From positions 27,113 through 91,112 of IMG/VR virus record IMGVR_UViG_3300031853_000013: 64,000 nt of DNA; one strand, given 5' to 3'. The position numbers were made by a program, and so were the translations under genes. Source of the stretch: a virus (Duplodnaviria > Caudoviricetes). The notes beneath the pieces are model-generated. The model worked only from the letters and a program-made list of their open reading frames with translations, was not told the origin of the DNA and did not search any database. This document shows, one piece after another, positions 392 to 60,329 of the stretch; the first letter of the stretch is position 1, and each line of letters starts with the position of its first letter.

Positions 392-1090
392 TCATGCATA
401 AGCAATATTCTTTGCTTTGTGCTTCCAGTTGTAAGCGCACTGAGTCGTTACTCCAAACATCTCTACCATCTTAGCATTGCCGAGCTTATCATACATGTTC
501 AGAAACGTAATAGCCTCCTGCTTGTTTCTAAACAGCGATTCACGTGTCTTAGCTTTACGATTCTGCAGTCTATATATGAGCTTAGCTTCGGCATCTTCAG
601 GAATCACTTTAGGCTCGACTTTACATGAGCTGGCACTCTTCTCGACGATCTCATTGTCGTTGTTGGTGATTTCTTTCTTTTCCATAGTCTCTCCTTTAAC
701 TTCTTCCGCCGTGTCATTACTGACGAAGCCAAAATATCTTTTTGTTTCCTGCATAATAACCTCGATAGATTCAGGCGAGAACGTATAATAATACTTCGCA
801 AAGAACTTAACATCCTTGGTCTGAATCTGACTGAGAATGATACGGGAAGTAATATCTCCTTTAACAAACACGATATCATGATCAGTGTACTCAGACTTAT
901 TAGCATTTGTTGTAAGCGGTGCACAAGTGATATGTCCACCGTAATGCTTAATAATTACGTACGGTCTGGTTCCATTGATTACCGTGGAGCCTTGATTTCT
1001 CAGTGCACTAGTAATTTCCTGCGGCTCCTCAACCAGCCATACCTGACCAGTAGCGAATGTAGATGTCCCAAGCTTCTTTTCAATACTCAT
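392..1090 (-). CDS. PemK/MazF-like domain protein with C-terminal HTH-like segment
   Basis: GQVWLV...GTRPYVII...CAPLTT...IILSQIQT matches the PemK/MazF pattern; C-terminal MVEMFGVTTQCAYNWK is HTH-like. Confidence 0.6.
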   Translation of the reverse strand: MSIEKKLGTSTFATGQVWLVEEPQEITSALRNQGSTVINGTRPYVIIKHYGGHITCAPLTTNANKSEYTDHDIVFVKGDITSRIILSQIQTKDVKFFAKYYYTFSPESIEVIMQETKRYFGFVSNDTAEEVKGETMEKKEITNNDNEIVEKSASSCKVEPKVIPEDAEAKLIYRLQNRKAKTRESLFRNKQEAITFLNMYDKLGNAKMVEMFGVTTQCAYNWKHKAKNIAYA

Positions 1091-2029: not shown

Positions 2030-2746
2030 TTACCTCCAATTATAAAAGCAGTTAGGCACGTTCATGTATTTTTGTGCCTGCTTATCGTTTGTCATGGTTT
2101 CATAAATATCGTCAAATACCACGGGAATGAGCTCATGCATCTTGACCAACAACGGGCATGTCACTCTATTCATATCAGGATGAGCAGGACCCGTAGTATT
2201 AGCCGCTCTAAGTTTGAAGAAGTGTCGCCACTCTCTGTAATTACCGGTAACGACAATTTCTGTTTTCACACAGTTTGGAAGTACCGCTCTGCATTCTTGT
2301 GGCGTATGACCGCTATCTCTAAGATAATAGTATGCTGACGCCGCGCTCGTGAGATATTCATCAAACACCTTTTGGTCGTTAAAAGAGGCGTCGTTGTACC
2401 AGAAAGGTCTAATGAATATCAATCCTCCAGCTTTTCCGCCATCATTGTAATCCACGTATCTGGTGCTCTCCTGTGCATACGAGAAATGTCTATGTCGAAC
2501 AATCTCATGTGATACTCCTCTATCAGTTTCAAAGCGAACCGATAACATCGAGTGTTCGAGCATAGCTTCATGTCCACGTTTGATAAGACCTCTAACGAAT
2601 CTCTTTGAAATCTCAGGATCGTTATTCGGATTTGCAGCCTCAGACTTGTAGCAGGTTCTCGCAGCTTCCTCAATAAGTGAGTATTCGTTGCCCTTGATCG
2701 GGGTAAGAATGTCTGTATGTGGATCAATAATCATGTGTGCTCCCAT
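2030..2746 (-). CDS. thyX: FAD-dependent thymidylate synthase
   Basis: ThyX signature RHRxxSxxQESTRY, plus GHEAMLEH and NYREWRHF; start moved to MGAH after GGAGG. Confidence 0.95.
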   Translation of the reverse strand: MGAHMIIDPHTDILTPIKGNEYSLIEEAARTCYKSEAANPNNDPEISKRFVRGLIKRGHEAMLEHSMLSVRFETDRGVSHEIVRHRHFSYAQESTRYVDYNDGGKAGGLIFIRPFWYNDASFNDQKVFDEYLTSAASAYYYLRDSGHTPQECRAVLPNCVKTEIVVTGNYREWRHFFKLRAANTTGPAHPDMNRVTCPLLVKMHELIPVVFDDIYETMTNDKQAQKYMNVPNCFYNWR

Positions 2747-2747
2747 T

Positions 2748-3095
2748 TTAGTTTTCCTCCTTGAATTCAATATTAAGTCTACCACAATGAGGGCAGTATT
2801 TTGTAAATTCCTTTAAATCAGCACCACAAGCACAGCACTCGAACATGCCTGGTTCGTCAACATGATCTATAATGTGTGTAATTGCTACAGACTTGACACC
2901 AGTCTCAAACTCTTGAAATACAGCATCGCCGAGATTACGAAGATTAATATATCTATGAAACAGATTCCGAAGTGCCTCTACATGATCAGTAGTTAGACTC
3001 TCATTCGTAAGCTCATTTTCATAGAGTATTTTGTGAAGCTCTCCGGAAAATGTAGCCTCGATAGCCTGTTCATACAGTTCCTTGAAGTCTTTCAT
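2748..3095 (-). CDS. hypothetical protein with C-terminal zinc ribbon
   Basis: CCACG...YCPHCG. Confidence 0.7.
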   Translation of the reverse strand: MKDFKELYEQAIEATFSGELHKILYENELTNESLTTDHVEALRNLFHRYINLRNLGDAVFQEFETGVKSVAITHIIDHVDEPGMFECCACGADLKEFTKYCPHCGRLNIEFKEEN

Positions 3096-3709: not shown

Positions 3710-3917
3710 TTGCTTCCTCCAGCCATTTGTTAAACTCTCTACAGCAGTCAATGCAGAGATCATATGTTTTCTTATAATAGTAGCCATCCTTCGAGTTATA
3801 ACTCCCTTGAACTACTGTATGAAAGCCGAGAACGTTGGTAAGTTCGCTGTTCCACGCCTTCACGTCATAATACTCAAACAACCGACCACATCGATCACAT
3901 TTTACAGCTTTAGCCAT
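3699..3917 (-). CDS. small zinc-binding protein
   Basis: KCDRCG...DLCIDC. Confidence 0.7.
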   Translation of the reverse strand: MAKAVKCDRCGRLFEYYDVKAWNSELTNVLGFHTVVQGSYNSKDGYYYKKTYDLCIDCCREFNKWLEEANET

Positions 3918-4203
3918 TAGTTGTTGTCCTCCTTTCTATCCTTGACATCTGACGATTCTGTTTGAGGTTAATCCAGGCCTGAATCTTAGTATCGTCAAGA
4001 TCATAAATATAATGAAGATTAGAGACCGCGATGAGTACATCAGCGATCTCTTCCTCCATATGTGAACGATTCTCGGTGCCCCGAAGTTGCTTCGACACAC
4101 ATTGAATTAACTCAGCACATTCCTCAGTAGCATTAGTTGCTGTATCTACCTCCCCGAAATAATCACAGGAGGTTTTGATGAGTTCTTTATTAACATTTAT
4201 CAT
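3910..4203 (-). CDS. MazG-like nucleotide pyrophosphohydrolase
   Basis: EECAEL...EEIADV motif. Confidence 0.8.
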   Translation of the reverse strand: MINVNKELIKTSCDYFGEVDTATNATEECAELIQCVSKQLRGTENRSHMEEEIADVLIAVSNLHYIYDLDDTKIQAWINLKQNRQMSRIERRTTTNG

Positions 4204-4208
4204 ACAGT

Positions 4209-5000
4209 TTACTCCTTGACCAAATCGTGAGGTGGCACGTTTGTGATGAACCAAGTATCTCCAAGCTTGTCGTTATCATAAGCCATATTGTAAGGTGCAA
4301 TATCGTCAACACTATCCCATCCGTAGTTGTCAGAAACCTTAAAATACTTGCTTCCGTTACCATGGATCATATGGTATACATCGTTCACGGTCAAACATCT
4401 TTTAGTTTCAAACGTCTTAATAGCTTCTCCGGCAATATGATAGGCGAGTGAACGCGATGGAATCTCAAGATACTGGCTGAAAGCTGTCGGTAAGATTCGA
4501 TCATTATCGCTTCGGAACTGTCTGAGATCTCTGGCTAACGGCAGACCCTCGATGTAATACTTATCTTCATCTGTTCGCACAACCAAATTACAAATATCCA
4601 TGTAATTATACCCGTAGTCAATCATACGATACGGAATGTTCGACATGATTGTTCCATCTTGATCATACTCGATAGCGTCGGACAGAATGTCATAAATATC
4701 AAGCTCGGTTACTACTCCAGAATCTTCAGCGACTTCAGTGATACGCTGCTGTACATACTTGGCCATCAGATACGAATTGAAATGAACGTCTGACAGGATA
4801 GATACCACCTTGATTTTACTGGTGTCGACCTCGGCAACGTTGCTAACATACTCTACGTCAGACGGTTTTGGTTCAGACTTAAACACGTTCTTAACCGATT
4901 CCTTGACATCGGTGATCTTCGATTTATCAACGTATTTGTCATATACGTGATAAGCGGCTACACCAAGGCCCAGTACTGCCAGTCCAATAAGTTTACTCAT
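4209..5000 (-). CDS. membrane-anchored protein with two copies of the 'VxDxY...(Y/W)GW...P' domain
   Basis: N-terminal TM; domain shared with 6845..7375, 7622..8158, 8239..8907. Confidence 0.7.
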   Translation of the reverse strand: MSKLIGLAVLGLGVAAYHVYDKYVDKSKITDVKESVKNVFKSEPKPSDVEYVSNVAEVDTSKIKVVSILSDVHFNSYLMAKYVQQRITEVAEDSGVVTELDIYDILSDAIEYDQDGTIMSNIPYRMIDYGYNYMDICNLVVRTDEDKYYIEGLPLARDLRQFRSDNDRILPTAFSQYLEIPSRSLAYHIAGEAIKTFETKRCLTVNDVYHMIHGNGSKYFKVSDNYGWDSVDDIAPYNMAYDNDKLGDTWFITNVPPHDLVKE

Positions 5001-5625
5001 AATTATTCTCCTTTAAATCAATATATTTCTGAACATCGAGGTTATAAAGTTTCAGAGCCTCGATTAATTCATCTAAGCATTTCGGTCCGAAACACCTAAT
5101 TTCCATGAGATGTTTGGGATCAGTCTCGTAAAGCTGCTTTAAATCCTCAATACCATCGCGAGTTAAGCAATGATACAGTCGAACAGATAGATTCATTTCT
5201 TTGACCGAAGGATTCTCAAATGCACTTTGCTTATGCTCAATGCAATCGTGGTAGCCGTTCAAGTAGCCCTCCCGATAAGCTACATTCGCACGTTCTCCGG
5301 ACCTTACTTCAAAGAACATCATAGGCCCTTTAAATACAATAGCACTATTACTAGGTCGTCTAAAAAATCTAGCCACATGTGATAAAATCTGCTGTACTCT
5401 AGCACTGCTGCGGTCGATTGCATCACCAACTTCTTTCTGGGTTTTGTTATCGCGGTAGTAAAGATTAATTACATCTTGACTACGGTCGTCCATCGTTGAC
5501 ATGACGTAATAAAACCCTGCCAAAGTGTTGACGCTCGTGTGTTCTTCAGCCTCCTTTTCAGTCCAAGCATACACAACCGACAAGAAATTATACGGATAAG
5601 GATAATCCGGTTTCTTAGTTCTCAT
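4993..5625 (-). CDS. sigma70 region-4 HTH fused to an RNA polymerase alpha-CTD-like domain
   Basis: KTQKEVGDAIDRSSARVQQI (region 4) and EMNLSVRLYHCL...IRCFGPKCLDEL (alpha-CTD HhH). Confidence 0.8.
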   Translation of the reverse strand: MRTKKPDYPYPYNFLSVVYAWTEKEAEEHTSVNTLAGFYYVMSTMDDRSQDVINLYYRDNKTQKEVGDAIDRSSARVQQILSHVARFFRRPSNSAIVFKGPMMFFEVRSGERANVAYREGYLNGYHDCIEHKQSAFENPSVKEMNLSVRLYHCLTRDGIEDLKQLYETDPKHLMEIRCFGPKCLDELIEALKLYNLDVQKYIDLKENNYE

Positions 5626-6081: not shown

Positions 6082-6216
6082 TTATTTGCGAATTATAAGA
6101 GACGCGATCTGTACGCAGCCATTTACCACACAGCTAACCATAAGCAGGGCAATGATCGGATGGTCATCAACGAATCTGTACAGCTTATCATCGGTCTTTT
6201 CCGGAATAGTGGTCAT
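6082..6216 (-). CDS. 44-aa hydrophobic peptide (not in ORF track)
   Basis: MTTIPEKTDDKLYRFVDDHPIIALLMVSCVVNGCVQIASLIIRK; AAGGAGG SD. Confidence 0.6.
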   Translation of the reverse strand: MTTIPEKTDDKLYRFVDDHPIIALLMVSCVVNGCVQIASLIIRK

Positions 6217-6251
6217 AGTTATTTCCTCCTTTGAAAATATAAAAAGAAAAA

Positions 6252-6366
6252 ATGGAAACACAGCTTTGCGGTCTTCGAACCCGCGTCTCCTTCACAACAT
6301 AGTCGTAAAGGCGCATTACCTTTATGCTATTTTGTTACCCGTAATCTCGGGTCGCTGTGTCTCCAT
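6252..6366 (-). ncRNA. tRNA-like RNA 1 (no CCA, 13-bp closing stem, extended anticodon-type arm)
   Basis: D-like GCAT-AAAGGTA-ATGC, 10-bp arm CCTTTACGAC-TAT-GTTGTGAAGG, T-arm GCGG-GTTCGAAGA-CCGC, closing ATGGAGACACAGC/GCTGTGTTTCCAT then U-tract; directly after promoter copy 3. Confidence 0.7.
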
Positions 6367-6571
6367 CATTATAGGACTTGCATAGTTTGCGAATCACTAT
6401 TTGTACGGACAGCTCTTCAAGCTCAGCTACTCTACGTGCTTGTTCGATATTATAGTGCCCCACGATATCATAGACAGTCGTTTCGTTGACCGCCTTTAAC
6501 ATAGAGTCGTTAAGATTCTCCGCGACATCTCGAATATCATTCGAATTCAGTATCTTCATCGTCGCTATCAT
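6335..6571 (-). CDS. hypothetical protein (3' end overlaps promoter 3 and the ncRNA 5' end)
   Basis: ORF with GAGGAG SD. Confidence 0.5.
   Translation of the reverse strand: MIATMKILNSNDIRDVAENLNDSMLKAVNETTVYDIVGHYNIEQARRVAELEELSVQIVIRKLCKSYNDGDTATRDYG
6368..6392 (-). promoter_or_regulatory. phage promoter motif copy 3
   Basis: TCGCA-AACTATG-CA-AGTCC-TATAAT-GA. Confidence 0.75.
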
Positions 6572-8158: not shown

Positions 8159-8238
8159 AACTAATTACCTCCAAATTTTATTTAAATATAAAAATTCTGG
8201 GAAGTCCTATGCTTAGAACTCCCCAGACTCAGACTTAC

Positions 8239-8921: not shown

Positions 8922-9785
8922 TTAATTAATAGTATAGTTGTTACTTTCATAGCAGCATCTCGGCTTTGTATCAAGTATGATCTCAAGACACGGGATCTCA
9001 GTATCAGGAATCTTCGCAGCCGAGAAGTGATACTTAATAAGTTCGCCATTTGCTTCCCAGTAGAAGATGTTACCAACGTCTGTTTCACTAACACCTCTAC
9101 CATGATTTGCGATATTAACTGCCACGGTATTAAAGTCGTACAGCAAATCGTTGAGCATTACCTCTTGGCAGTTATTAATAGCGTGATTAGCTCGGATGAA
9201 GCACTCCTTGACATCTTCAATTCTAGCACTAAAGATCTGTCCTGTCATTGGCGCCATAAATATCGTGTAACTGGTATTGTCTGAAGCAAAGCGCTTAACT
9301 TCATCATCTACCGGAGTGTTCTCAAGCTTCTTTCTTGTTACGGCAGCTTCGATCTCACCAGCCTTCTTCTCTCCGAACTTCTCAATAGTTTTCTTCTGAT
9401 ACTCCTTTAATGACATATCGGCAATCGTGTACGCTGCTGAAAGAGCTGTCTGACGCTTGTCGCTGATGTAGTCCGAGCCGATAACTGCTGCACTTGAGAG
9501 AATAAAAGATACAGCTGTCGGCCAGTATGCGGGCGTCACTGCCTTGAATGTCTCGAATGGTGTAAGCTTAATGCTACTACGTTCTTCCTGTGGAATACCT
9601 TCTTCGTCGGCCTTTAGTGCCTTAGCCTCATCGATCAGAAGATCAGCCTTAGGCTTAGCATTTACTGCAAATATCACAGTAGTGAAGAATCCTGCAATAC
9701 CTGCTGCCGTAAGAAGTTTTGGGGAGTGCTTAACCAGCGTCTTCACTCCACCATGTGTGATCTCAGTGATCTTCGTTGTGTCCAT
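8922..9785 (-). CDS. DUF6353-like membrane-associated phage protein
   Basis: KHSPKLLTAAGIAG N-terminus and ALSAAY...YQKKTIEKFGE segment. Confidence 0.65.
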   Translation of the reverse strand: MDTTKITEITHGGVKTLVKHSPKLLTAAGIAGFFTTVIFAVNAKPKADLLIDEAKALKADEEGIPQEERSSIKLTPFETFKAVTPAYWPTAVSFILSSAAVIGSDYISDKRQTALSAAYTIADMSLKEYQKKTIEKFGEKKAGEIEAAVTRKKLENTPVDDEVKRFASDNTSYTIFMAPMTGQIFSARIEDVKECFIRANHAINNCQEVMLNDLLYDFNTVAVNIANHGRGVSETDVGNIFYWEANGELIKYHFSAAKIPDTEIPCLEIILDTKPRCCYESNNYTIN

Positions 9786-9820: not shown

Positions 9821-9907
9821 GAGATGATAATGCCCCTGGGAATCGAACCCAGTCTATATAGCCATCTACTATATCGCGTCCCGTCCGCGAATCATTATCA
9901 TCACTCC
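9821..9907 (-). ncRNA. tRNA-like RNA 2 (no CCA, long closing stem)
   Basis: TCGCG-GACGGGA-CGCGA, TATAG-TAGATGG-CTATA, canonical T-arm CTGGG-TTCGATT-CCCAG, closing GATGATAATG/CATTATCATC then U-tract; directly after promoter copy 4. Confidence 0.75.
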
Positions 9908-9932
9908 ATTATGGAAGTTGCTTAGTTTGCGA
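9908..9932 (-). promoter_or_regulatory. phage promoter motif copy 4
   Basis: TCGCA-AACTAAG-CA-ACTTC-CATAAT-GG. Confidence 0.75.
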
Positions 9933-30100: not shown

Positions 30101-32842
30101 TGTGTCTACGATTCCATCTTTAATTTCGAAAATTACATCGGTAACTTTCTTAACGTTTTGGATGGCCTTGAAACCCTCAATAACGCTTAATGTCAAGCCA
30201 AGTGCTGAAACAATGCCAGTTACATCTCCAAGGCTGAGATTACTGAATATCTTACTGATACCATCTCCGACCTTCTGTAAAACACCTTCAGCGTCAGAGG
30301 GAATATTTTTGATCGTGGTTGACAGTTCTCCTACTGCATCGGACGTGTCTTTGACATTGGTTGCTGCCGTTTTAAGATTACTAAATACGGTAGTTATGTT
30401 TTCGAATATTGACTTAGATTTGTCAGTTCCTTTAAACAAATTTGTTACATTACTGATGTCTGTATTACTAAGATCGGTAATCGCTGTTTTGACGGTATTT
30501 ATGGTGTTAACTAATTGATCCCACATCGTATACAGATCAATGCCGGTGGTATCCTTTAGCCAATCCGCAAACGTATTCATCGCTTTTCTAAAATTCTCAC
30601 CGAAATTATCAATGAAGTTATTGATCGAATCTGCGGCGCCATCGATCCAGCCGATAATAGTCTCGACGTCCATGGTATTCTTGACGAAGTCCATAGCACC
30701 TTCAGCAGCATCGCCAAACGCACTGCCGGCAGGAAGGATCTTCTCAATAAGATGACCGAAGACTTTACCTACAGCCTCAAAAATGGCGAGACCTATTCTG
30801 AAACCACCGACGAGGCCATCCCACAAACCTTTAACAATATTGATTACGGTTTCAGATGCTTCAAATTTATCAGCAAGATTCTCAACAAACCCGGCTACCT
30901 TATCAAATATACCTCCAATGGTATCCATAACCACACTGAGCTGATCGGTCTCATCTTCTGTGCCGACCATAGCGTCAGTCACGGTGAATAATTTGTCGGC
31001 GATTGTGATAACAGCTTTAATAACCGATCCAGCCACTTTAGCAAAGCCTTTAAACACGGTAAGACCGATTTTTACTACCTTAAATATAGCAGTGAACGCG
31101 GCTTTAATGGTGGGGAGATGTTTGTCGGAAATATAAAGCTGAGTCGTCATGTCTTTGACTTTCAACGTAAAGTCTAAAAGCGACTTACGGAGATTCATAG
31201 GAAATACCTCGTTGAAAGCCTCCTTGATAGGTTCCACGATTTCAGCCAGACTATCCCATATATCTACAAGTATACCAGAATACTCGGTAACCTTCTCGGT
31301 TTCATACACGATGTTACCATAGGTATCCTTTAATACCTCACCGTCTTCGTTAACCTTAGCAATCTTTTCGCCGTTCTCATCAAGAACGAAGTTAGTTTTC
31401 TCGATAGCATCAAACCAGGTACTTCTACCACCGATCTTCGCGCTATAGCTATACCAGAACTTCAAAGCCTCGTTTCTTGCATTATTGAACGGCTCGATGA
31501 TACCAGTAATCGCATTATTGACCGCCGTCCAGAGTTTGGGAGCATCAGTAAAACCGCCTACAATATACTGCCATGTTTCAGTCCATCCAGACTGTGCGGC
31601 TTCCTTGAGAGCATCCCACATCTGTGTGAACGTACGAACCTTCGTAGCAGCATCAGTAGCTACCGTACCGAGATCCATAATCTCTTTAACCGCTTCGTCA
31701 GAATATCCAAGATCTTTCCAGTAAGCCTCATCGAAGTCACCGGCAAACTTAGCCAAGGTTTCGCTAAGTACATCGGTTGTTAACCAGTTTTGTGCGAGAG
31801 ATTCACGGAAGCTTCCTTCACCCGTTATAAGTTCATCGATACTTCCGTATCCAGTATCTTCAATCACTGCTCGATAACTATCATCGACTTCCATGAGGTG
31901 TTCAGCAGTAGCCTTTAACGCATCCTGGAATGTCTTACCACCCATACCAGCAGTATGCTCTAAGCTCATCCAGTCCTGAAGTCTAACACGTCCAGTAGCA
32001 AGAGCCTGAGACAACTGGAACATCGATCGAGAAGCATCCGAAGCCGGAGCGCCTACGTATGCGGCAAGGTTAGCGATACCCTTTACAGAACGAGCAGAAG
32101 TATCAACATCAATACCGGCCGTGGTAAACTGACCAATAGCCTGAGTCATCTGAGTAAAGTTGTAGATAGTCTTATCTGCGTACAGATTCAAATTATCAAG
32201 AACTTCCTCGATATGTTCAACGGTTGTACCACTGGATTTAGCTATCTCATCGTTAAAATCGTCCATGGATTTCGCAGTGCCATTAGCAAGTTTATTAACC
32301 ATGGACTGAACGGTGCCATAATCAAGTCCTGCGGCAGCAAGAGCATCCACTCGAGCCTTACCATTACCGTAAATGTTCGGACCGAACCAAATCTTGTTAA
32401 CAGCCTCAAGCGACTCGGCCATGGACTTAGCAGAGTCAGCAGCGTCCTGGTTTAAGGCACCTGTATTAGCTGCAATAACCTGGATCGAGTTCATCTTGGT
32501 CTCATACTCTTGGAAGCCGGTTGTAATCGGATCTACAGCGAGAGCCTTTACAATATTTTTGCCGAGATTGATAGCACTATCGGCGATTCGGTCAAAGATT
32601 TTCAGAACGGTCACATCGAGTAACGAGAAATTAGCATGAACTTGAGAGATGCCGTCGTTAAGTCCCTTGAAACTTATATGATTAGCCGCTTTTTCAATAG
32701 AATCGAAACCCTCTGCAGCCTTTTCAAGTTTTAGAGCCTTCTTAAGTTTGTCGATAGTAGAGAGTGACTCTTTAACGTTTTTCTCAAACCTTGAGTTGTC
32801 GAATTGCATTCGAACAATTCTTTCATCAACGTTGTTTGACAT
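27173..32842 (-). CDS. tape measure protein
   Basis: 1889 aa, helical/hydrophobic, LNLYADKTIYNF tape-measure domain. Confidence 0.95.
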   Translation of the reverse strand: MSNNVDERIVRMQFDNSRFEKNVKESLSTIDKLKKALKLEKAAEGFDSIEKAANHISFKGLNDGISQVHANFSLLDVTVLKIFDRIADSAINLGKNIVKALAVDPITTGFQEYETKMNSIQVIAANTGALNQDAADSAKSMAESLEAVNKIWFGPNIYGNGKARVDALAAAGLDYGTVQSMVNKLANGTAKSMDDFNDEIAKSSGTTVEHIEEVLDNLNLYADKTIYNFTQMTQAIGQFTTAGIDVDTSARSVKGIANLAAYVGAPASDASRSMFQLSQALATGRVRLQDWMSLEHTAGMGGKTFQDALKATAEHLMEVDDSYRAVIEDTGYGSIDELITGEGSFRESLAQNWLTTDVLSETLAKFAGDFDEAYWKDLGYSDEAVKEIMDLGTVATDAATKVRTFTQMWDALKEAAQSGWTETWQYIVGGFTDAPKLWTAVNNAITGIIEPFNNARNEALKFWYSYSAKIGGRSTWFDAIEKTNFVLDENGEKIAKVNEDGEVLKDTYGNIVYETEKVTEYSGILVDIWDSLAEIVEPIKEAFNEVFPMNLRKSLLDFTLKVKDMTTQLYISDKHLPTIKAAFTAIFKVVKIGLTVFKGFAKVAGSVIKAVITIADKLFTVTDAMVGTEDETDQLSVVMDTIGGIFDKVAGFVENLADKFEASETVINIVKGLWDGLVGGFRIGLAIFEAVGKVFGHLIEKILPAGSAFGDAAEGAMDFVKNTMDVETIIGWIDGAADSINNFIDNFGENFRKAMNTFADWLKDTTGIDLYTMWDQLVNTINTVKTAITDLSNTDISNVTNLFKGTDKSKSIFENITTVFSNLKTAATNVKDTSDAVGELSTTIKNIPSDAEGVLQKVGDGISKIFSNLSLGDVTGIVSALGLTLSVIEGFKAIQNVKKVTDVIFEIKDGIVDTLETVGAAFGDFRKFMKSQMIINVALAIGILALALTALAYVPEDQLGRALGSVIMLMVTLNSVMSGMTKAMAAVAGKTVAGTMFAIAASVLMIAGAIALLGSMKTDELGPGLAAMYVIIGAFKLLFKGMASMPLQNMENVGNNIFKISLAIGGLILAIGMLSKDGKSLSDFFPAMAVVTAMVSLIAGLVVVLSKFPIVQLQGVGATMMLIAVAIDIMIGGFVGLVAAADMAKEGSMKAAIGAMITIMSGVILMLATMIGITALAKTTKIGSIGLIMMAIGATIDAMVGALAGLVILHNRYGEDAMDEAILDIIQLSGIVGAFMLLATLCTSLGGRIGGLIVLGGAMAIITTTMYAFAGLVATLGQLDDTSLERGLSAIKTIGSIVAALIVVFGFMSAIAAPKGLNVVAKFNISSFALNFLIFAGALLATAAAVWVFVDAAKRLYSLIQQIGSNGGDVLANFFDSIFDPQVLNSAMNAFLNFMDWMIINVPFITAKIGAFLGVIAASTLTMLGPFIAFLLQSLADILRVTAANIGPVVEELVKLIAAIIEALAVAIENNQESLAEGIVHLLEALWGLLIATLGKLWMKWEESDAYKALENFGAWLYDAFESAGTWLQKALETFDGWIETGLYWLFHWPEELGNLIAEFFTCLVTDLGKWLWGILMSVWAWILDLWDSIKLGQQEIRDYIIEKIDNLVTDIKGKIEDFKKAGKDLIHGFFLGFTDEDEASKMTDAVTGFVDGIKNIIVGPLGFIMGSPSHWAEEQGQLVMEGFKNGVEESGPEAEASVSNVKDNMKAQVEDMRNNTQSLFDQKFKMPEIDTSAFTESMAQIPQPEIDTSNMYNFADVLSQYEAEENPTMTITPVLDMDNLQYEDYAGGFDFGSMFGDGASAFSLDTTNSLANMDAYDFESMMAENQPEPYDDTNVINAITQLNERLNEMAQGFADTDVRLDTGVLVGELVGPMDQALGQRATRTRRGG

Positions 32843-46095: not shown

Positions 46096-47841
46096 TTAAT
46101 AGAACAAATCCTTATTAGCCTTCCACGCTACATATGCGTCCATCATTGCTGAGACGTTATCGATCTTCTGGTCATTGCGTTTCTTAAGAAGCTTTCGGTT
46201 ACCATTGGTGTCCTCCAAAGTAATGCAGTTACCCATGCAGAACTTCATAAGCTCCTGATCGAACCTAAGCATCCTATCTTCAGACAGAATCTTGAGTTCG
46301 CCAAGAGGTACCGACTCTGTACGTGCACCCTGTATTACTTTTTCGATACCATAGGCTCCATTCTCAGTTTCCCACCGTGTAACAAATTCCTTTGCATTGT
46401 ATGGGTCAAATCCGAAAGACACTATTTCGTAACCGCAGTCTGCGATATACTTATCAACGTCATCGTAGACTTCGTTGATGTCTAGAACAGAACCATCCAT
46501 GACAATCAAACTACCCTCTTGCATAAAGATGTCATAGGTGGCTCTCATAGCAAGAGGAAGTTTGGCGAGAGTTCTGGCGGTTATATAGGATCGAACCTTG
46601 ATACCAAAAGAACCATCTCTAAGTGGGAACATGAATGTAAATGCACAGAAGTCGTCGCCTTGAGACAGGTCAGCACCCATACTACAAGGAAGACCCCAGT
46701 AATCACGTCTTGGATGACAGAGAGTCTCACCATACGTGAAGAAGTATGTGTAACCCTCCATCGGTATTCCGAAACGTTTAGCCAGAATATCATTTCTAGC
46801 AGCGGGTGCTTTCTCGGCTCTGTCAACATCTAGCTGATATGTTTCATATGTGACAGTCTTACCCAGATTAGGATTAGCCTTAAGCCACATGTTAGGATCA
46901 GCAACTTCTTTGATGTCATCAAGTCGATACCACCATATGGATACGTGAGGATTGATGTACTCGCCCTTCAGTATGTCCATAAGTTCCATTTTGATTGTAT
47001 CACCACTTCCATTACGGACAGTACCCTCAGAAGAAATAGCAACAATCAAATAGTCATCAAGCTTAGAAGCTCCCTGCTCAATAGCACCGATAACATCTTC
47101 ACGTACATCGCCAGAAAGCCACTCATCAATGGTGGCAATCTTACAACGCATACCCTGAAGCTTATCGATACTCATCGGACGGATCTCGATAATGGAGCCG
47201 GTTAAGAAATTCTCAATTCCTTTCTTGGTGGATGCTAGTTTACATCGATTGGCTTTGGCGCCTGTAGTATTCTGCAAACTACCTTCGGTTAAGAATTGGA
47301 ATAGCGGACCTCGTGCGCGAGTAATGGACGTTCGAATAGGTGACAAAACCTCTTCCGCTTGGTGCATGGTAGGAGCGGTAGTTATCTGTTGTGTTGTGAA
47401 AGGGTCTATGTTCAAATGATAGCTTTGTATACAGGAAGCATACATGGATTTCGCAGCACCTCTGGCCACAATCAGGTATTGCTTATTGATTAGTCGTTTC
47501 TTTATACGCTTCTTTTCGTAATGTCCTTCAACACCATCCTGTGGAGGTACAAAGACACTACGCTCAATGAAGTAATACCAGCCATAGATTTGCTCAGCCC
47601 ATAATTTAAAGCTATCCAAAAGATGTAAATCTGAGCCATCAGTTAGGGTTAGCTCTGATTCACAATATTTGATAAAGCCTTCAACCGCCTCGTCATCGTA
47701 GTAGATCGAAGGATTATCAATTAGGTCGTCTATGCGGTTCATCTCCATGGAAATTTCCTGATTAACTGGTATTTCTCGTCGAAGTACCGCATCACGAAAC
47801 TTTCCATAATAGATCGGGACCGCCGTGTTACTTAAACTCAT
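46096..47841 (-). CDS. terL: terminase large subunit
   Basis: Walker A VARGAAKS, Walker B ATIDE, nuclease GADLS and KIDNVSA. Confidence 0.95.
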   Translation of the reverse strand: MSLSNTAVPIYYGKFRDAVLRREIPVNQEISMEMNRIDDLIDNPSIYYDDEAVEGFIKYCESELTLTDGSDLHLLDSFKLWAEQIYGWYYFIERSVFVPPQDGVEGHYEKKRIKKRLINKQYLIVARGAAKSMYASCIQSYHLNIDPFTTQQITTAPTMHQAEEVLSPIRTSITRARGPLFQFLTEGSLQNTTGAKANRCKLASTKKGIENFLTGSIIEIRPMSIDKLQGMRCKIATIDEWLSGDVREDVIGAIEQGASKLDDYLIVAISSEGTVRNGSGDTIKMELMDILKGEYINPHVSIWWYRLDDIKEVADPNMWLKANPNLGKTVTYETYQLDVDRAEKAPAARNDILAKRFGIPMEGYTYFFTYGETLCHPRRDYWGLPCSMGADLSQGDDFCAFTFMFPLRDGSFGIKVRSYITARTLAKLPLAMRATYDIFMQEGSLIVMDGSVLDINEVYDDVDKYIADCGYEIVSFGFDPYNAKEFVTRWETENGAYGIEKVIQGARTESVPLGELKILSEDRMLRFDQELMKFCMGNCITLEDTNGNRKLLKKRNDQKIDNVSAMMDAYVAWKANKDLFY

Positions 47842-47862: not shown

Positions 47863-49290
47863 TCATACGTCTTCACGCCAACCTCCGCCAGGACGTTTGG
47901 TGTATCTAAACGTTCCTTTATCAGAATCGGTGCGTCCTATACTGCCATCAAATGATGCTATACCAAGGGTATATGGTGACGATGATAATTTAGTAGTATT
48001 CAAGATAAGATCTCCTGATGAGTTAGTAGACACATTAGGTGTATGCCACTCGGTAGGCATAGCCAAATCAGCAAAGGAGGTTTTAGCAGCTTTTTCCATT
48101 CCTGAATAATAACTTAAATATGTGGCAGCAGATTGTGCAGCCTCTCCTTTACCCTTAGCGATTTGTTTTAATTCTTTAGCCGATTGTAATCCAGTGTTAA
48201 CATCAAAAACGTCAGGAGCTTTAGTCTTATTAAATATACCCTGTTTTCCCGTAGTAGTTGTAGCATTAGACGCCCAATCATCAGAAGTTATCGTATCTGA
48301 TTTACCGCCAGGCCCAGATTTAGGACCGTTAGGATTGTTATTATTGCCACCGGTATTATCGGAATCGTTGCCTTTATTTTTCTTGTTTTTGCCGTCACTG
48401 CTATTATCATTATTGTTTTTATTTTGTGCATTAATAGCATCAACAATCTTGTCCGAGTCAGACTTACCCTTCTTAGGCATAAGCGATTCCCAAGGCTGAA
48501 TCTTAAATACGGGAAGTTTCTCATAGCCGGCGATCTCGTTTACATTGGCAGCGATCTTATTATAGGCTTCATATGCCCCTACGGCAGTACCGGCAATGCC
48601 GACAAGAGTTTTGCCAGTAGAAGCAATCTTGTCAAGAGTGATCTTACCATCCTTAGCAGTCTGGCGATTTTCTTTCGTCTGCTTGAGACTCTCGAGAGCC
48701 TTCTTATCTTCTGGCTTGATCTTTTCGAGTTTGCTAATCCGATTAAGTGCCCGATCGAGCTCATCGTCATTGAGCATGGCACGATTCTTATAGACCTCTT
48801 TTGGAGTAGCGCGATTAATAAGATGTTCAACCTGCTTAGAAGACTTTTCGGTCTTAAACTGGTTCACCTTATTAATGCGAGCCATAGCCTTATCGAGCTC
48901 TTCATCGCTAAAGAGTTCTCGATTCTTATAGATAGCATCCTTATCGCCTTTAGCAATAAGCTTAGCCTTCTTATCTTCGATAGCCTTTTCGCGCTTTTGT
49001 CTAACTTCCTCAGCCTTTTGAAGTTTAAGTTTCTTATTCTCTTCCTTCTTTTCAGCCTTGAGCTTAAGACGCTTACGTTTTTCAGAATCTGTTTCCAATC
49101 TAAAAGATTTACGGGTCTTAAGCTTATTGGACACTGCATTTCTAGCCTGTCCAATGCCCCAGTGAATTCGTCCGAGCGGAGTTAGAGAACCATCCTTATT
49201 CTGATACCGTCTCTCGCCCCACTTTTGTCCAGTAACTCCGTAATGGGCCAGAAAGTTAACTTCAATTTTCTGGTTTTCCATCTCCATCAT
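47863..49290 (-). CDS. basic protein with an N-terminal 'HYGxxGQKWGxRRYQNxDGSLT' module
   Basis: module shared with 54785..55603; internal YKNRxxxxDxELDxAxxRI duplication. Confidence 0.8.
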   Translation of the reverse strand: MMEMENQKIEVNFLAHYGVTGQKWGERRYQNKDGSLTPLGRIHWGIGQARNAVSNKLKTRKSFRLETDSEKRKRLKLKAEKKEENKKLKLQKAEEVRQKREKAIEDKKAKLIAKGDKDAIYKNRELFSDEELDKAMARINKVNQFKTEKSSKQVEHLINRATPKEVYKNRAMLNDDELDRALNRISKLEKIKPEDKKALESLKQTKENRQTAKDGKITLDKIASTGKTLVGIAGTAVGAYEAYNKIAANVNEIAGYEKLPVFKIQPWESLMPKKGKSDSDKIVDAINAQNKNNNDNSSDGKNKKNKGNDSDNTGGNNNNPNGPKSGPGGKSDTITSDDWASNATTTTGKQGIFNKTKAPDVFDVNTGLQSAKELKQIAKGKGEAAQSAATYLSYYSGMEKAAKTSFADLAMPTEWHTPNVSTNSSGDLILNTTKLSSSPYTLGIASFDGSIGRTDSDKGTFRYTKRPGGGWREDV

Positions 49291-57611: not shown

Positions 57612-60329
57612 TTAAGCACCTTCTTTCTTAACAGCACTAATAGTTGATGTAGAAACATCGAACTTCTCGGCAATGTCGCTAGTTGTCCATCCAGCGTCAA
57701 GCATTGCCATAATTCGTGCTTTGTTAGCAGTTGTTAATCCATTTGACGTTCTAGGCATAGCCCGTTCTTTAAGGGCGTCGTCGTCACAGTTTTTGAATAT
57801 AGCTTCCTGCTTGGTAGCGGATATAGCTCCAGCTTGGATTGCTTCCCATTCACGGTCTGACAGTACAATAGCCTGTCTCTTAGCACCTACGACCTCTCTA
57901 GCGTCTCGGAGAGCATTGTTTTTTACCTTCTTCAGGGCCTCCTTATCGTCTTTCAGCTCAGGGTTATCCTGCTTCTTAGTACGAACCGTCTGATTGGCAA
58001 TAAGCTGGGCCTTACGTTCGAGGGGGGCATTACGTCTAGCATCGTCAAGCTTCTTATCGAGGGATGCTATCTCGTCCTTATATGCCAGGGTGGTAGCCCC
58101 TCTGTTCCACTGGGCGGGTTCCACGCTAAGTGATGCCTTACGTGCACGATTACCAAGGGCCTTCATATAGTTGGCATAGTCGGCATATACCTCTTCCATC
58201 TCGTGTCCAGAGGACAGACTATAGGCATCCTTGGTCTCGTACATTTTAGTACTCTCAACTGGCTTATAGGGTTTGGTGCTAGTTCTGACTTCACCGTTCT
58301 TAAGTACCTTAGTCTTGGTGACAGTCTCAGGATGCTCAGTCCATTTGATTTCGCCAGTTTCCTCGTCAATCCATTGTCCTTTTCTTTCCCGACGATAGAC
58401 ATACTCAGGAGACTTGGCTTTTGACAGAAGTGTAGCAGCGCCACCACGAGCAGATCCCTGGTATTTAGTCTTAAGTTCAGCAATACCGTTATCGATATAC
58501 GACTGTTCGTAGTCTAACCGGTGTTTGTTAGCATCAATTACGACCATCGAATGTCTTGTAGCTCGAGCCAACTCGTTATCATCGGCTCCCTGAAGCGTCA
58601 TATCGGTAATCAGGTTTGTGATCATACCCATCTGTTTACCAGTATCAGCCTTTGTCATGACTCTCATGCCTTCATGGTATCCATATGTGGCCTTAGGATC
58701 AAAGTTCTTCAGTCCTTCGAGCGGGGCAGAGGTCTTTATCTTAACGTTCTTAGTGGGAATAACGAGAGCTGTATCACCGTCAAAGTCCGCACCAGACAAC
58801 TGTTCAGCAGTCTTGCTGTTGATACCGACTGCGTCAATAGCATTAGCGCCCATAACATTAGCGCCCTCTTTGTTCTTGTTATTAACCCTCAGTCTGGGCA
58901 TCTCAAACCGTCCGCCATGAGGGAATCTAACAAGTACAACTTCTTCGCCGTCTTTGTAATTGGGTGCATAAATCTCATTGTCTTTGAGCGTAGTAAGAGG
59001 CAGTAACACATGTGAAGCCTGTCTAGGCAAAGCGGCGGCCTTAAGATCGACTGCATCAGCATCACATCCATCAGCGAACTCAAGAAGCATCTTCTTCTTA
59101 AGAACGGGATTAGTGAGATTCATGATTGTCTCGAACTCTTCATCAGACTCGGCCTTTGCCAGATTGAGCTGTTTTTTAGCAAGCTCGATAGGCTGCTTAG
59201 ACAGAACCTGTGACGCAAGCGTCTTAGCCCATTCGCCCCATTTACCTTCTTCACGAACGATGTTAAGAGCACCTTGAACTTTTTCGCCTTTTTCATTCTT
59301 GTAAGAATTCTGGCGTTCCAAATATGCACCAAACGGGTTGTCCTTGTCGCCGGACTGAAGTTTTAGTACAGTATTATCTTTTTCGCCCATCATGGGAGTG
59401 CCGCGATGCTTATTTGTGTTGAATCGGATGTCCACGCCGTCAGGCAGATCGTCAGCATACACAGCCATGCCTTTAATATAGTGAGTTCCACCAACAGCGA
59501 TACGAACCTGTGCGTACCTTGAATTACCCATATCAAGATCAGCAACACCACGTCTAAGCTCCATAACGCCATCTTTAGCAAGTCCGCCGTCTTCAGCGTA
59601 AACTACACTGACTCGTTTAGGATCTACCTGAACAGGAGGCTTGATAGTACGCCGTTCCTTAGGATCTCCATCAACCATATACTCAACAGGAAGCGCAATC
59701 TTGTCCATATTGTCATATACTTCCTTTTGAGTGACGCCGGCCTTTACTAATACATCCATATTAGTCTTCTGGAGAGGATTCGAAATCTGAGGAATGTGAA
59801 GCTGGACTTTGTCATAGTCTCCGCTATCAACAAGCATCTTAACGGCACTCTTCATGGTATTCTCACTAATACCCATAAAGCGATTAACCTCAGCACCGAC
59901 ATCGACATAGTCCTTCTTGTCAACGGAGTCCTTTAAAATATCGGCGGTGGCATTAATACGGTTAGCCTTGACTTCAGCGCCATCCTTAAGAAGAGTACGA
60001 ACATAAGATTCATTACGATTCATGCGCTTACCGATAGCGACATTGGACATACCCTTTTCCTTTAATTTCTGGGCCATTGCAATATCGGCACGCTTGGATT
60101 CATTAGCGGCGATGCTAAGTCTCTTACGAAACTCTGTGGTGCTAATACCTTCCATACGAGCGATTTCGGTATCACCTTTGCCCTGGGCACGCCAGTAGTC
60201 GACCCTTGAAACGAAGTTCTTACTTCTCTGAGGCTTCTTACCAGATCCCCACGGATAGCGGCCTGAATGTCTGGGTGTGCCATAATGCATTAAAAAGTCT
60301 TCCTTGAATTCGTCAGACATCGGTATCAC
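57612..60329 (-). CDS. putative single-chain two-barrel (DPBB) DNA-directed RNA polymerase
   Basis: GADFDGD (DFDGD codons at 58773..58787) preceded by VRFP; HTH-like segments at both termini. Confidence 0.75.
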   Translation of the reverse strand: MIPMSDEFKEDFLMHYGTPRHSGRYPWGSGKKPQRSKNFVSRVDYWRAQGKGDTEIARMEGISTTEFRKRLSIAANESKRADIAMAQKLKEKGMSNVAIGKRMNRNESYVRTLLKDGAEVKANRINATADILKDSVDKKDYVDVGAEVNRFMGISENTMKSAVKMLVDSGDYDKVQLHIPQISNPLQKTNMDVLVKAGVTQKEVYDNMDKIALPVEYMVDGDPKERRTIKPPVQVDPKRVSVVYAEDGGLAKDGVMELRRGVADLDMGNSRYAQVRIAVGGTHYIKGMAVYADDLPDGVDIRFNTNKHRGTPMMGEKDNTVLKLQSGDKDNPFGAYLERQNSYKNEKGEKVQGALNIVREEGKWGEWAKTLASQVLSKQPIELAKKQLNLAKAESDEEFETIMNLTNPVLKKKMLLEFADGCDADAVDLKAAALPRQASHVLLPLTTLKDNEIYAPNYKDGEEVVLVRFPHGGRFEMPRLRVNNKNKEGANVMGANAIDAVGINSKTAEQLSGADFDGDTALVIPTKNVKIKTSAPLEGLKNFDPKATYGYHEGMRVMTKADTGKQMGMITNLITDMTLQGADDNELARATRHSMVVIDANKHRLDYEQSYIDNGIAELKTKYQGSARGGAATLLSKAKSPEYVYRRERKGQWIDEETGEIKWTEHPETVTKTKVLKNGEVRTSTKPYKPVESTKMYETKDAYSLSSGHEMEEVYADYANYMKALGNRARKASLSVEPAQWNRGATTLAYKDEIASLDKKLDDARRNAPLERKAQLIANQTVRTKKQDNPELKDDKEALKKVKNNALRDAREVVGAKRQAIVLSDREWEAIQAGAISATKQEAIFKNCDDDALKERAMPRTSNGLTTANKARIMAMLDAGWTTSDIAEKFDVSTSTISAVKKEGA

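Follow-up and report, generated by a model that had tools for sequence, protein, structure and literature searches.

A tRNA-derived, apparently non-decoding RNA behind a promoter of a phage with a putative RNA polymerase of its own

The DNA investigated here (the window) is a stretch of 64,000 nucleotides, bases 27113-91112 of the 91,112-bp IMG/VR virus record IMGVR_UViG_3300031853_000013, which CheckV rates as complete. All genes of this phage genome are carried by the minus strand. Our subject is RNA 1, a tRNA-like element at positions 6252-6366 of the window, located between a promoter and a U-tract. Positions refer to the window unless a genome position is stated. In the direction of transcription, RNA 1 and its immediate surroundings contain the following features; L036 and G003, which are described below, each harbor a homologue.

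6368-6392, minus strand: phage-specific promoter, TCGCA-N7-CA-N5-TATAAT (recognised by its motif)
6367, minus strand: putative first transcribed base, G, the first base after the -10-like hexamer (placed by the geometry of the motif)
6354-6366, minus strand: 5' strand of the 13-bp closing stem, the analogue of the acceptor stem (fold)
6337-6352, minus strand: extra hairpin A, 5 bp and a 6-nt loop, between acceptor position 7 and U8 (fold)
6330-6336, minus strand: A-rich junction linker of 7 nt, six of the seven bases being the same in L036
6312-6329, minus strand: U8-A9 and the D arm (4 bp and a 7-nt loop with G18 and G19) at 6329-6313, and G26 at 6312; this 18-mer also occurs in real tRNAs
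6289-6311, minus strand: analogue of the anticodon arm, a 10-bp rod with a 3-nt loop (fold)
6285-6288, minus strand: variable region AGAC, 4 nt, the same in all three homologues
6268-6284, minus strand: T arm with a UUCGA T-loop and G.A at 53:61 (fold)
6265-6267, minus strand: three unpaired A from the T stem to the closing stem, the same in L036, a single A in G003
6252-6264, minus strand: 3' strand of the closing stem (fold, and pairing in the homologues)
6241-6251, minus strand: U-tract, U6-C-U5, directly 3' of the closing stem, the presumed terminator (sequence)
6082-6231, minus strand: AU-rich spacer, Shine-Dalgarno (SD) sequence and a membrane-type open reading frame (ORF) of 44 amino acids with its ATG at 6216 (sequence)

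A preliminary description of the locus had listed a closing stem, an extra hairpin, a D arm, a rod, the AGAC stretch, a T-loop and a U-tract directly after a promoter. All of these elements are present on the minus strand in the places it gave them, with the promoter motif at 6392-6368 and the RNA running from 6367. The T arm was placed correctly and so was its T-loop, but its stem had been drawn with 4 bp; because G003 has a U-A pair at 53:61, the arm is better drawn as 5 bp closed by a canonical 7-nt loop, with G.A at that position in RNA 1. The five-way junction is returned by RNAfold as minimum free energy structure and centroid alike (-51.1 kcal/mol), and none of 200 dinucleotide shuffles folds as well (-27.5 +/- 3.3 kcal/mol; z -7.25 for RNA 1). 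With a G.U pair contributed by G6367, the closing stem extends beyond 13 bp (13-14 bp). A simple terminator scan omits RNA 1, because the "loop" enclosed by the stem ahead of the U-tract is an 87-nt multibranch domain.

The promoter belongs to a class (TCGCA-N7-CA-N5-YWTWAT) with 31 copies in the 91-kb genome, every one of them on the minus strand. One copy lies directly upstream of RNA 1, on its coding strand, and the 5' end of the RNA that it heads is paired; transcription most likely starts at G6367. The same motif class is found in Arthrobacter phage Qui (17 copies on the plus strand, none on the minus strand) and in the IMG/VR genomes G002 and G003, in the latter as TCGTA. Ordinary cassettes that have a leader mostly begin with a short hairpin whose first base lies at +1 to +4, followed by an AU-rich spacer and an SD sequence, which suggests that pairing of the 5' end is a general habit of the transcripts of this phage. 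RNA 1 takes the usual position of this hairpin and is likewise followed by an AU-rich spacer, an SD sequence and the 44-aa ORF, which has no family match and no promoter of its own.

RNA 1 shares with phage tRNAs (RF00005) a letter-identical segment from U8 to G26, the D-loop, a variable region of 4 nt, the UUCGA T-loop, the order of the arms, and the complete set of elbow and core nucleotides (U8, G10-C25, A14, A15, G18, G19, A21, G26, A44, G45, C48 and U54-A58). It differs from them in the anticodon arm and at the acceptor end. In place of a 7-nt anticodon loop with U33 on a 5-bp stem there is a 3-nt loop on a 10-bp rod; in place of a 7-bp acceptor stem contiguous with U8 and the T stem there is a 24-nt insertion with a hairpin ahead of U8 (the 7/8 joint), an AAA joint after the T stem, and a clamped 3' end of 13-14 bp that runs into the U-tract and encodes no CCA. 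The 53:61 G.A and detector scores below threshold are further differences. The preliminary description had expected tRNA detectors and Rfam to return a pseudogene or nothing, and this is what we observe: at the gathering threshold Rfam cmscan gives no hit in the window, and at E<=10 the RNA 1 locus has no tRNA, riboswitch, Y-RNA or YrlA match. ARAGORN (tRNA and tmRNA) reports nothing in the window at its default, accepts RNA 1 only when the threshold is set to 80% (-ps80), and makes no call at default stringency after in silico deletion of the 24-nt insertion, the AAA, or both. The search of the genome with RF00005 yields a single match, a sister element at genome 134-206 (45.2 bits).

The 18-mer from U8 to G26 occurs in 15 IMG/VR contigs. 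In 11 of these it lies inside tRNAs called by ARAGORN, which have eight different anticodons, and always at tRNA positions 8-26; among the remaining occurrences, two fall in tRNA clusters and one in a further tRNA-like RNA. Ordinary phage tRNAs are also the next-best matches of model R1 (see below), a covariance model of RNA 1 and its homologue in L036. Judged by these sequence relationships, the core of RNA 1 is descended from a tRNA. One ordinary-looking phage tRNA that has the same D arm as RNA 1 (L063:6649-6723; IMG/VR 3300009684_000049) lies within a cluster of 13 tRNAs and has a CUA anticodon, with which it would read the amber stop codon.

A metagenome scan with a two-block pattern (D-loop and T-loop) returned one contig only, JAEIGA010688358.1 (1613 bp; L036), in which the element lies on the minus strand. 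Behind a promoter that reads TCGGA-N7-CA-N5-TATAAT, L036 repeats the architecture of RNA 1. Its closing stem has a wholly different sequence, yet is paired over 8-9 bp; the extra hairpin has one change in the loop, the D arm has none, and the rod has 9 bp and a 3-nt loop, with a distal half that differs in sequence. No change is seen in the variable region, the AAA joint or the U-tract. Folded alone, L036 forms the identical junction (z -4.0). Model R1, which gives the L036 sequence 134.9 bits, also matches G003 (42.9 bits, E ~1e-11), a complete viral genome of 72.7 kb whose polymerase is of the same family as that of our phage (46% identity) and whose promoters read TCGTA-N7-CA. In G003 the clamp comprises exactly 7 bp from +1, U8 is preceded by an A-rich insertion of 19 nt that forms no hairpin, the D stem shows covariation, and the anticodon analogue consists of 5 bp and a 6-nt loop. 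The second pair of the T stem, C-G in RNA 1, is U-A in both homologues, a compensatory change.

Covariation across homologous loci had been proposed as a check on the structure, and it is found. In the alignment of the three sequences 98.7% of the pair cells are standard pairs, and 11 of the 28 pairs have changed on both sides, a count that none of 500 shuffles reaches and that compares with at most 2 in slid-partner controls. The analogue of the anticodon arm contributes four such pairs out of nine. RNAalifold, applied to an independent MAFFT alignment of two homologues, finds 6 compensatory pairs. While the stems covary, no elbow or core nucleotide differs between the three homologues, all of which are without a 7-nt anticodon loop and without an encoded CCA. 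The features required for decoding and for accepting an amino acid have been lost, and the architecture is kept by compensatory change in two other phages. The earlier view of the element as an elbow mimic and not a decoding tRNA thus holds up against its homologues. RNA 1 is probably functional, and as far as can be told from sequence, RNA 1 and its two homologues are an undescribed family of tRNA-derived, non-decoding RNAs with three known members. Within the tRNA-like RNAs discussed here they form a separate sequence family, with its 7/8 insertion and special T arm. Three changes are specific to the lineage: the anticodon arm as a closed rod, a long 5'/3' clamp without a free NCCA, and insertions at the 7/8 and 65/66 joints. 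No Rfam family covers RNA 1, and it is not described in the literature that we searched.

A blastn comparison of L036 with the phage genome shows similarity only from the -10 region through the SD sequence (79% over 157 nt), and the genes that flank the cassette are unrelated between the two; in G003, too, its neighbors are different genes. This suggests that promoter, RNA and U-tract move as one cassette. Other searches added no member: neither the 1.2-kb locus nor the RNA core has a homologue in INPHARED by blastn, the 176-aa protein encoded upstream has no relative in IMG/VR, and pattern scans of IMG/VR returned chance matches, ordinary tRNAs or G003 only. Two matches from a scan of genome contigs were rejected as chance matches, both being located in coding DNA.

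RNA 1 is not the only RNA of this kind in the genome. Instead of an ORF, four of the 31 promoters each head an RNA that has its first bases paired with its last ones and a U-run at its end (sealed RNAs hereafter):

genome 213 to ~125, minus strand: sealed RNA that includes the sister element at genome 134-206
genome 11517 to ~11340, minus strand: sealed RNA
6252-6366, minus strand: RNA 1
9907-9821, minus strand: RNA 2, a sister element consisting of a promoter, a sealed tRNA-like RNA and a U-tract, unrelated to RNA 1 in sequence

The closing stems of these RNAs all begin at +1 or +2. A U-run immediately 3' of the stem sets the sealed RNAs apart from the ordinary 5' hairpins, which have none; it is seen in all four sealed RNAs of this genome, and the closing stems in L036, G003, Lactococcus phage CHPC971, Faecalibacterium phage FP_oengus and Qui lead into a U-tract as well. 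Model R1 matches none of the other sealed RNAs of this genome, which suggests that they are independent tRNA derivatives and not copies of RNA 1. Two of them lie outside the window. In the element at genome 134-206, named "tRNA-???" by ARAGORN, the anticodon loop has 6 nt, a 7-nt leader pairs with the trailer, and a U-tract takes the place of the CCA; the same 6-nt loop is present in FP_oengus 2936-3005. The RNA from genome 11517 to ~11340 measures ~170 nt from promoter to U-tract and contains an 11-bp closing stem and several hairpins; its sole trace of a tRNA is a hairpin that resembles a T arm, and the genome-wide tRNA search gives it no match.

Comparable RNAs are present in other phages. 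A second promoter-driven tRNA-like element of G003 has a 3-bp GAAA mini-hairpin as its anticodon arm, together with a near-canonical 7-bp acceptor stem that abuts the T stem. CHPC971 contains a tRNA-like element at 30735-30801 (37.6 bits) with an anticodon arm of 3 bp and a 6-nt loop, pairing between leader and trailer, and U12. The tRNA-like element of FP_oengus (2936-3005) has a U-tract behind it and adjoins a repeated promoter-like motif, a further copy of which follows directly after. Like RNA 1, these sister RNAs and the three other sealed elements of this genome are adjacent to promoters, have a crippled anticodon arm (a 6-nt loop, a 3-bp stem or a GAAA mini-hairpin) and end in a U-tract without a CCA; unlike RNA 1, they are nearer to a plain cloverleaf, and three of them reach the RF00005 threshold. 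From these sequences, a crippled anticodon arm combined with a retained elbow appears as a recurrent, independent outcome in the phage group that bears this type of polymerase.

In Qui, 4 of the 17 promoters head sealed RNAs that end in a U-tract and have no tRNA features, two of them located directly before a new promoter. This indicates that sealing is more widespread than tRNA mimicry. The Qui RNAs (MN183282.1, plus strand, 46591-46760, 47874-47980, 75190-75265 and 85754-85870; unannotated) start at +1 and have terminal stems of 10-20 bp, followed by ATTATTTTT; in two of them a hairpin unit of ~25 nt is present in two or three tandem copies. The contig L036 (1613-1500, minus strand) opens with the 3' end of another element, a T arm followed by a U-tract. 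The next unit on this contig has a promoter 89% identical to the promoter at window 9908-9932, a sealed hairpin RNA of ~37 nt, a U-tract and a gene, and three such units occur within 1.6 kb.

The polymerase to which these promoters presumably belong is a single-chain, two-barrel RNA polymerase encoded at window 57612-60329. Its closest database relatives, at 50% identity or less (IMG/VR and INPHARED), are found in phages of Arthrobacter, Streptomyces, Gordonia, Lactococcus (1706-like) and Faecalibacterium. This phage group and its putative polymerase have been described (bioRxiv 10.1101/842583); the same work lists no predicted tRNA in the Streptomyces BI cluster and does not mention tRNA-like RNAs.

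With moderate confidence, we favor the explanation that RNA 1 is a self-contained small-RNA gene, whose product would be a trans-acting ligand in the shape of a tRNA, in a phage with its own polymerase. If this were the case, the phage polymerase would initiate at G6367 and mostly stop in the U-tract. The released RNA, ~120 nt in length, would form an L-shaped body with both arms lengthened, both tips closed and a hairpin at the hinge, and, having no free end, it would be stable and resistant to nucleases. The principle by which its 5' end is sealed would be the one used on most mRNAs of this phage. Such an RNA could bind, and so titrate or recruit, a factor that reads the tRNA elbow and core irrespective of anticodon and 3' end, the candidates being host enzymes of tRNA processing or tRNA modification, or a tRNA-directed defence protein. 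Enzymes such as RNase P, RNase Z and the CCA-adding enzyme might dock on the elbow of RNA 1, yet would encounter an uninterrupted helix where a free end and a 12-bp acceptor/T ruler, used by RNase P and the CCA-adding enzyme, are expected. In transcripts that read through the U-tract, the element could cap the 5' end and so protect the message of the genes downstream. That a new promoter follows directly after the FP_oengus element and two of the Qui elements favors stand-alone units. A decoy for tRNA-targeting defence nucleases had also been suggested at the outset; in the case of anticodon nucleases this is unlikely, as the anticodon loop is the very part that has been removed.

Several observations weigh against a trans-acting small RNA. 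The start, the end, the abundance and the termination by the phage polymerase are all predicted from sequence; the covariation comes from three homologues, and the alignment used for the pair count was fitted to the model. In this phage, in L036 and in G003, a gene with an SD sequence follows the U-tract without a new phage promoter (for 4.6 kb in the case of RNA 1), which fits a leader or attenuator equally well. Sealing as such needs no tRNA core, as the Qui RNAs demonstrate. A gene for a tRNA-binding partner adjoining RNA 1 was not found among the Pfam and PHROGs matches of the neighboring phage proteins, nor is there a tRNA enzyme near RNA 1 among ~45 proteins of the accessory region (Pfam and PHROGs). 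The genome does encode an RNA ligase of 213 aa outside the window (genome 18558-19199, minus strand; PF09414, E 1.7e-17; PHROG 548), which we considered as a partner of the sealed RNAs and rejected: it is absent from four other phages with sealed or tRNA-like RNAs (G003, Qui, FP_oengus and CHPC971) and from Mudcat, and is therefore not tied to the sealed RNAs. The presence of the ligase is a hint, from sequence, of RNA repair during infection.

An alternative explanation, which we consider possible although less probable, is that RNA 1 is a cis-acting leader, that is, a protective oversized 5' hairpin, a terminator-type attenuator (possibly controlled by a ligand or protein), or both, for the genes from 6216 to ~1800, with the tRNA shape as a mere scaffold. 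The preliminary description had thought of an attenuator for the downstream gene, and the idea keeps some likelihood because in all three phages an SD-bearing gene comes after the U-tract with no promoter in between. RNA 1 sits in place of the ordinary 5' hairpin, with the same AU-rich spacer and SD sequence; the next TCGCA promoter downstream is at position 1790, 4.6 kb away; and the arrangement is the same in L036, G003 and CHPC971. A tRNA-like fold in a cis-regulatory RNA also has a precedent in the yjdF riboswitch (PMC9142559). However, the genes downstream differ in each phage, so a leader would have to do without the logic of a gene-specific riboswitch, and neither an alternative antiterminator pairing nor, at the locus and E<=10, an Rfam riboswitch match is seen. 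The restriction of the U-run to sealed RNAs and the new promoters that come at once after the FP_oengus and Qui units also speak against a leader, and a mere stabilizer would leave the invariance of the elbow unexplained.

It is unlikely, in our assessment, that RNA 1 serves as processing punctuation, with a core that recruits host RNase P or RNase Z (or both) for the cleavage of polycistronic phage transcripts at this site, or that it is trimmed and CCA-tagged to become an aminoacyl carrier independent of the anticodon. tRNAs punctuate mitochondrial transcripts, and the tRNA-like mascRNA does so in MALAT1. The elbow read by RNase P and RNase Z is conserved, a transcript of the upstream ORF would enter RNA 1, one sister element (genome 134-206), in which leader and trailer pair, has the score of a true tRNA, and the near-canonical acceptor stem of the second G003 element would suit such a role. 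However, the acceptor analogue of RNA 1 is a continuous helix of 13-14 bp, paired from the first base, and the length of the closing stem varies between 7 and 14 bp among the homologues. Because of the AAA after the T stem and the 24-nt insertion before U8, the 12-bp acceptor/T ruler is not reproduced.

That RNA 1 is a Y-RNA-like particle RNA, with the closing stem as a protein handle (for Ro60/Rsr as in YrlA) and the tRNA-like core as the effector, appears highly improbable. YrlA reportedly combines a clamped stem with a tRNA-like module without a free CCA, and in RNA 1, too, a non-decoding tRNA mimic with its elbow kept and no free CCA ends in a long clamped 5'/3' stem. YrlA is circularly permuted, with its ends on the anticodon side and the acceptor as a closed hairpin, whereas RNA 1 ends on the acceptor side and has the normal arm order of D arm, anticodon analogue and T arm. 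A conserved handle is missing, because the closing stem differs in sequence and in length from one homologue to the next. A search of the whole 91-kb genome, with positive controls, found no TROVE domain within reach of the PF05731 profile, and Rfam at E<=10 gave neither a Y-RNA nor a YrlA match. A decaying tRNA pseudogene or a chance structure serving as a terminator would agree with the failure of ARAGORN and RF00005 to recognise RNA 1 (even with the insertions deleted, at the default threshold), but is effectively excluded by the covarying stems with invariant loops and junctions, by derived features (extra hairpin, rod with a 3-nt loop, AAA, and a 53:61 position that is not G-C) kept in a second phage with unrelated flanks, by the cassette moving as a unit, by its own copy of the promoter, and by its z-score of -7.25.

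The genes around RNA 1, on the minus strand like all others, include the following, named from their annotation:

2030-2785, minus strand: ThyX
3910-4254, minus strand: protein with a MazG domain
4993-5625, minus strand: fusion of sigma region 4 and alpha-CTD
8922-9785, minus strand: DUF6353 protein

Relatives of the sigma region 4/alpha-CTD protein, 63-92% identical, are found in Logan assemblies only. An ORF at 6571-6335 (minus strand, 74-78 aa) without a family match extends through the promoter into RNA 1, of which it covers the first 30 nt; in L036 the upstream ORF ends 18 nt ahead of the promoter, so the overlap may be incidental. A strong 14-bp hairpin with a U-run lies at 8196-8227 (minus strand) within the row of genes downstream of the element at 9821-9907. 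The genes beyond this hairpin must rely on read-through or on host promoters, which suggests that leaky termination is normal here. Farther downstream, at 392-1090 (minus strand), a 232-aa protein has a MazF/PemK-like Pfam match that is weak and just under the cut-off (E 1.4e-4), and matches PHROG 1936, "MazF-like growth inhibitor" (E 4e-7). By these matches it may be a phage endoribonuclease.

Engineered tRNA scaffold RNAs also use the tRNA body as a nuclease-resistant frame in which the anticodon arm is replaced by another helix. The scaffold RNAs and mascRNA have a processable acceptor end that depends on RNase P and RNase Z, whereas the end of RNA 1 is clamped, and the replaced arm of RNA 1 has no "cargo" of conserved sequence.

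The presence of tRNA genes in phages is usually explained by codon supply or by the replacement of tRNAs destroyed by host defence. In the RNA 1 family the decoding loop and the accepting end are gone, while the elbow and the fold have been selected in at least three phages, which points to a function of the tRNA shape that needs neither decoding nor charging. Genes of this kind are invisible to standard annotation with tRNA detectors and Rfam, and RNA 1 adds a defined class of transcripts to a phage group with a putative polymerase and promoters of its own. Its small size, its clear predicted start and stop signals and its natural variants (a rod of 5, 9 or 10 bp, an extra hairpin present or absent, a clamp of 7 to 14 bp) make RNA 1 directly testable. 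Tentatively, and with more doubt than conviction, we extend the explanation of RNA 1 as a trans-acting ligand to the polymerase-bearing phages at large (the supercluster of Lactococcus 1706, FP_oengus and the actinophages, with relatives): their "blocked" tRNA mimics, an as yet undescribed class with promoters of their own and with anticodon and 3' end both shut on purpose, might be competitors, neither cleavable nor chargeable, for a host factor that reads the elbow, such as RNase P or RNase Z, an enzyme that modifies the T-loop, or a tRNA-directed immune effector. If this is true, the "blocked" mimics would represent a new RNA-based principle of host takeover or counter-defence.

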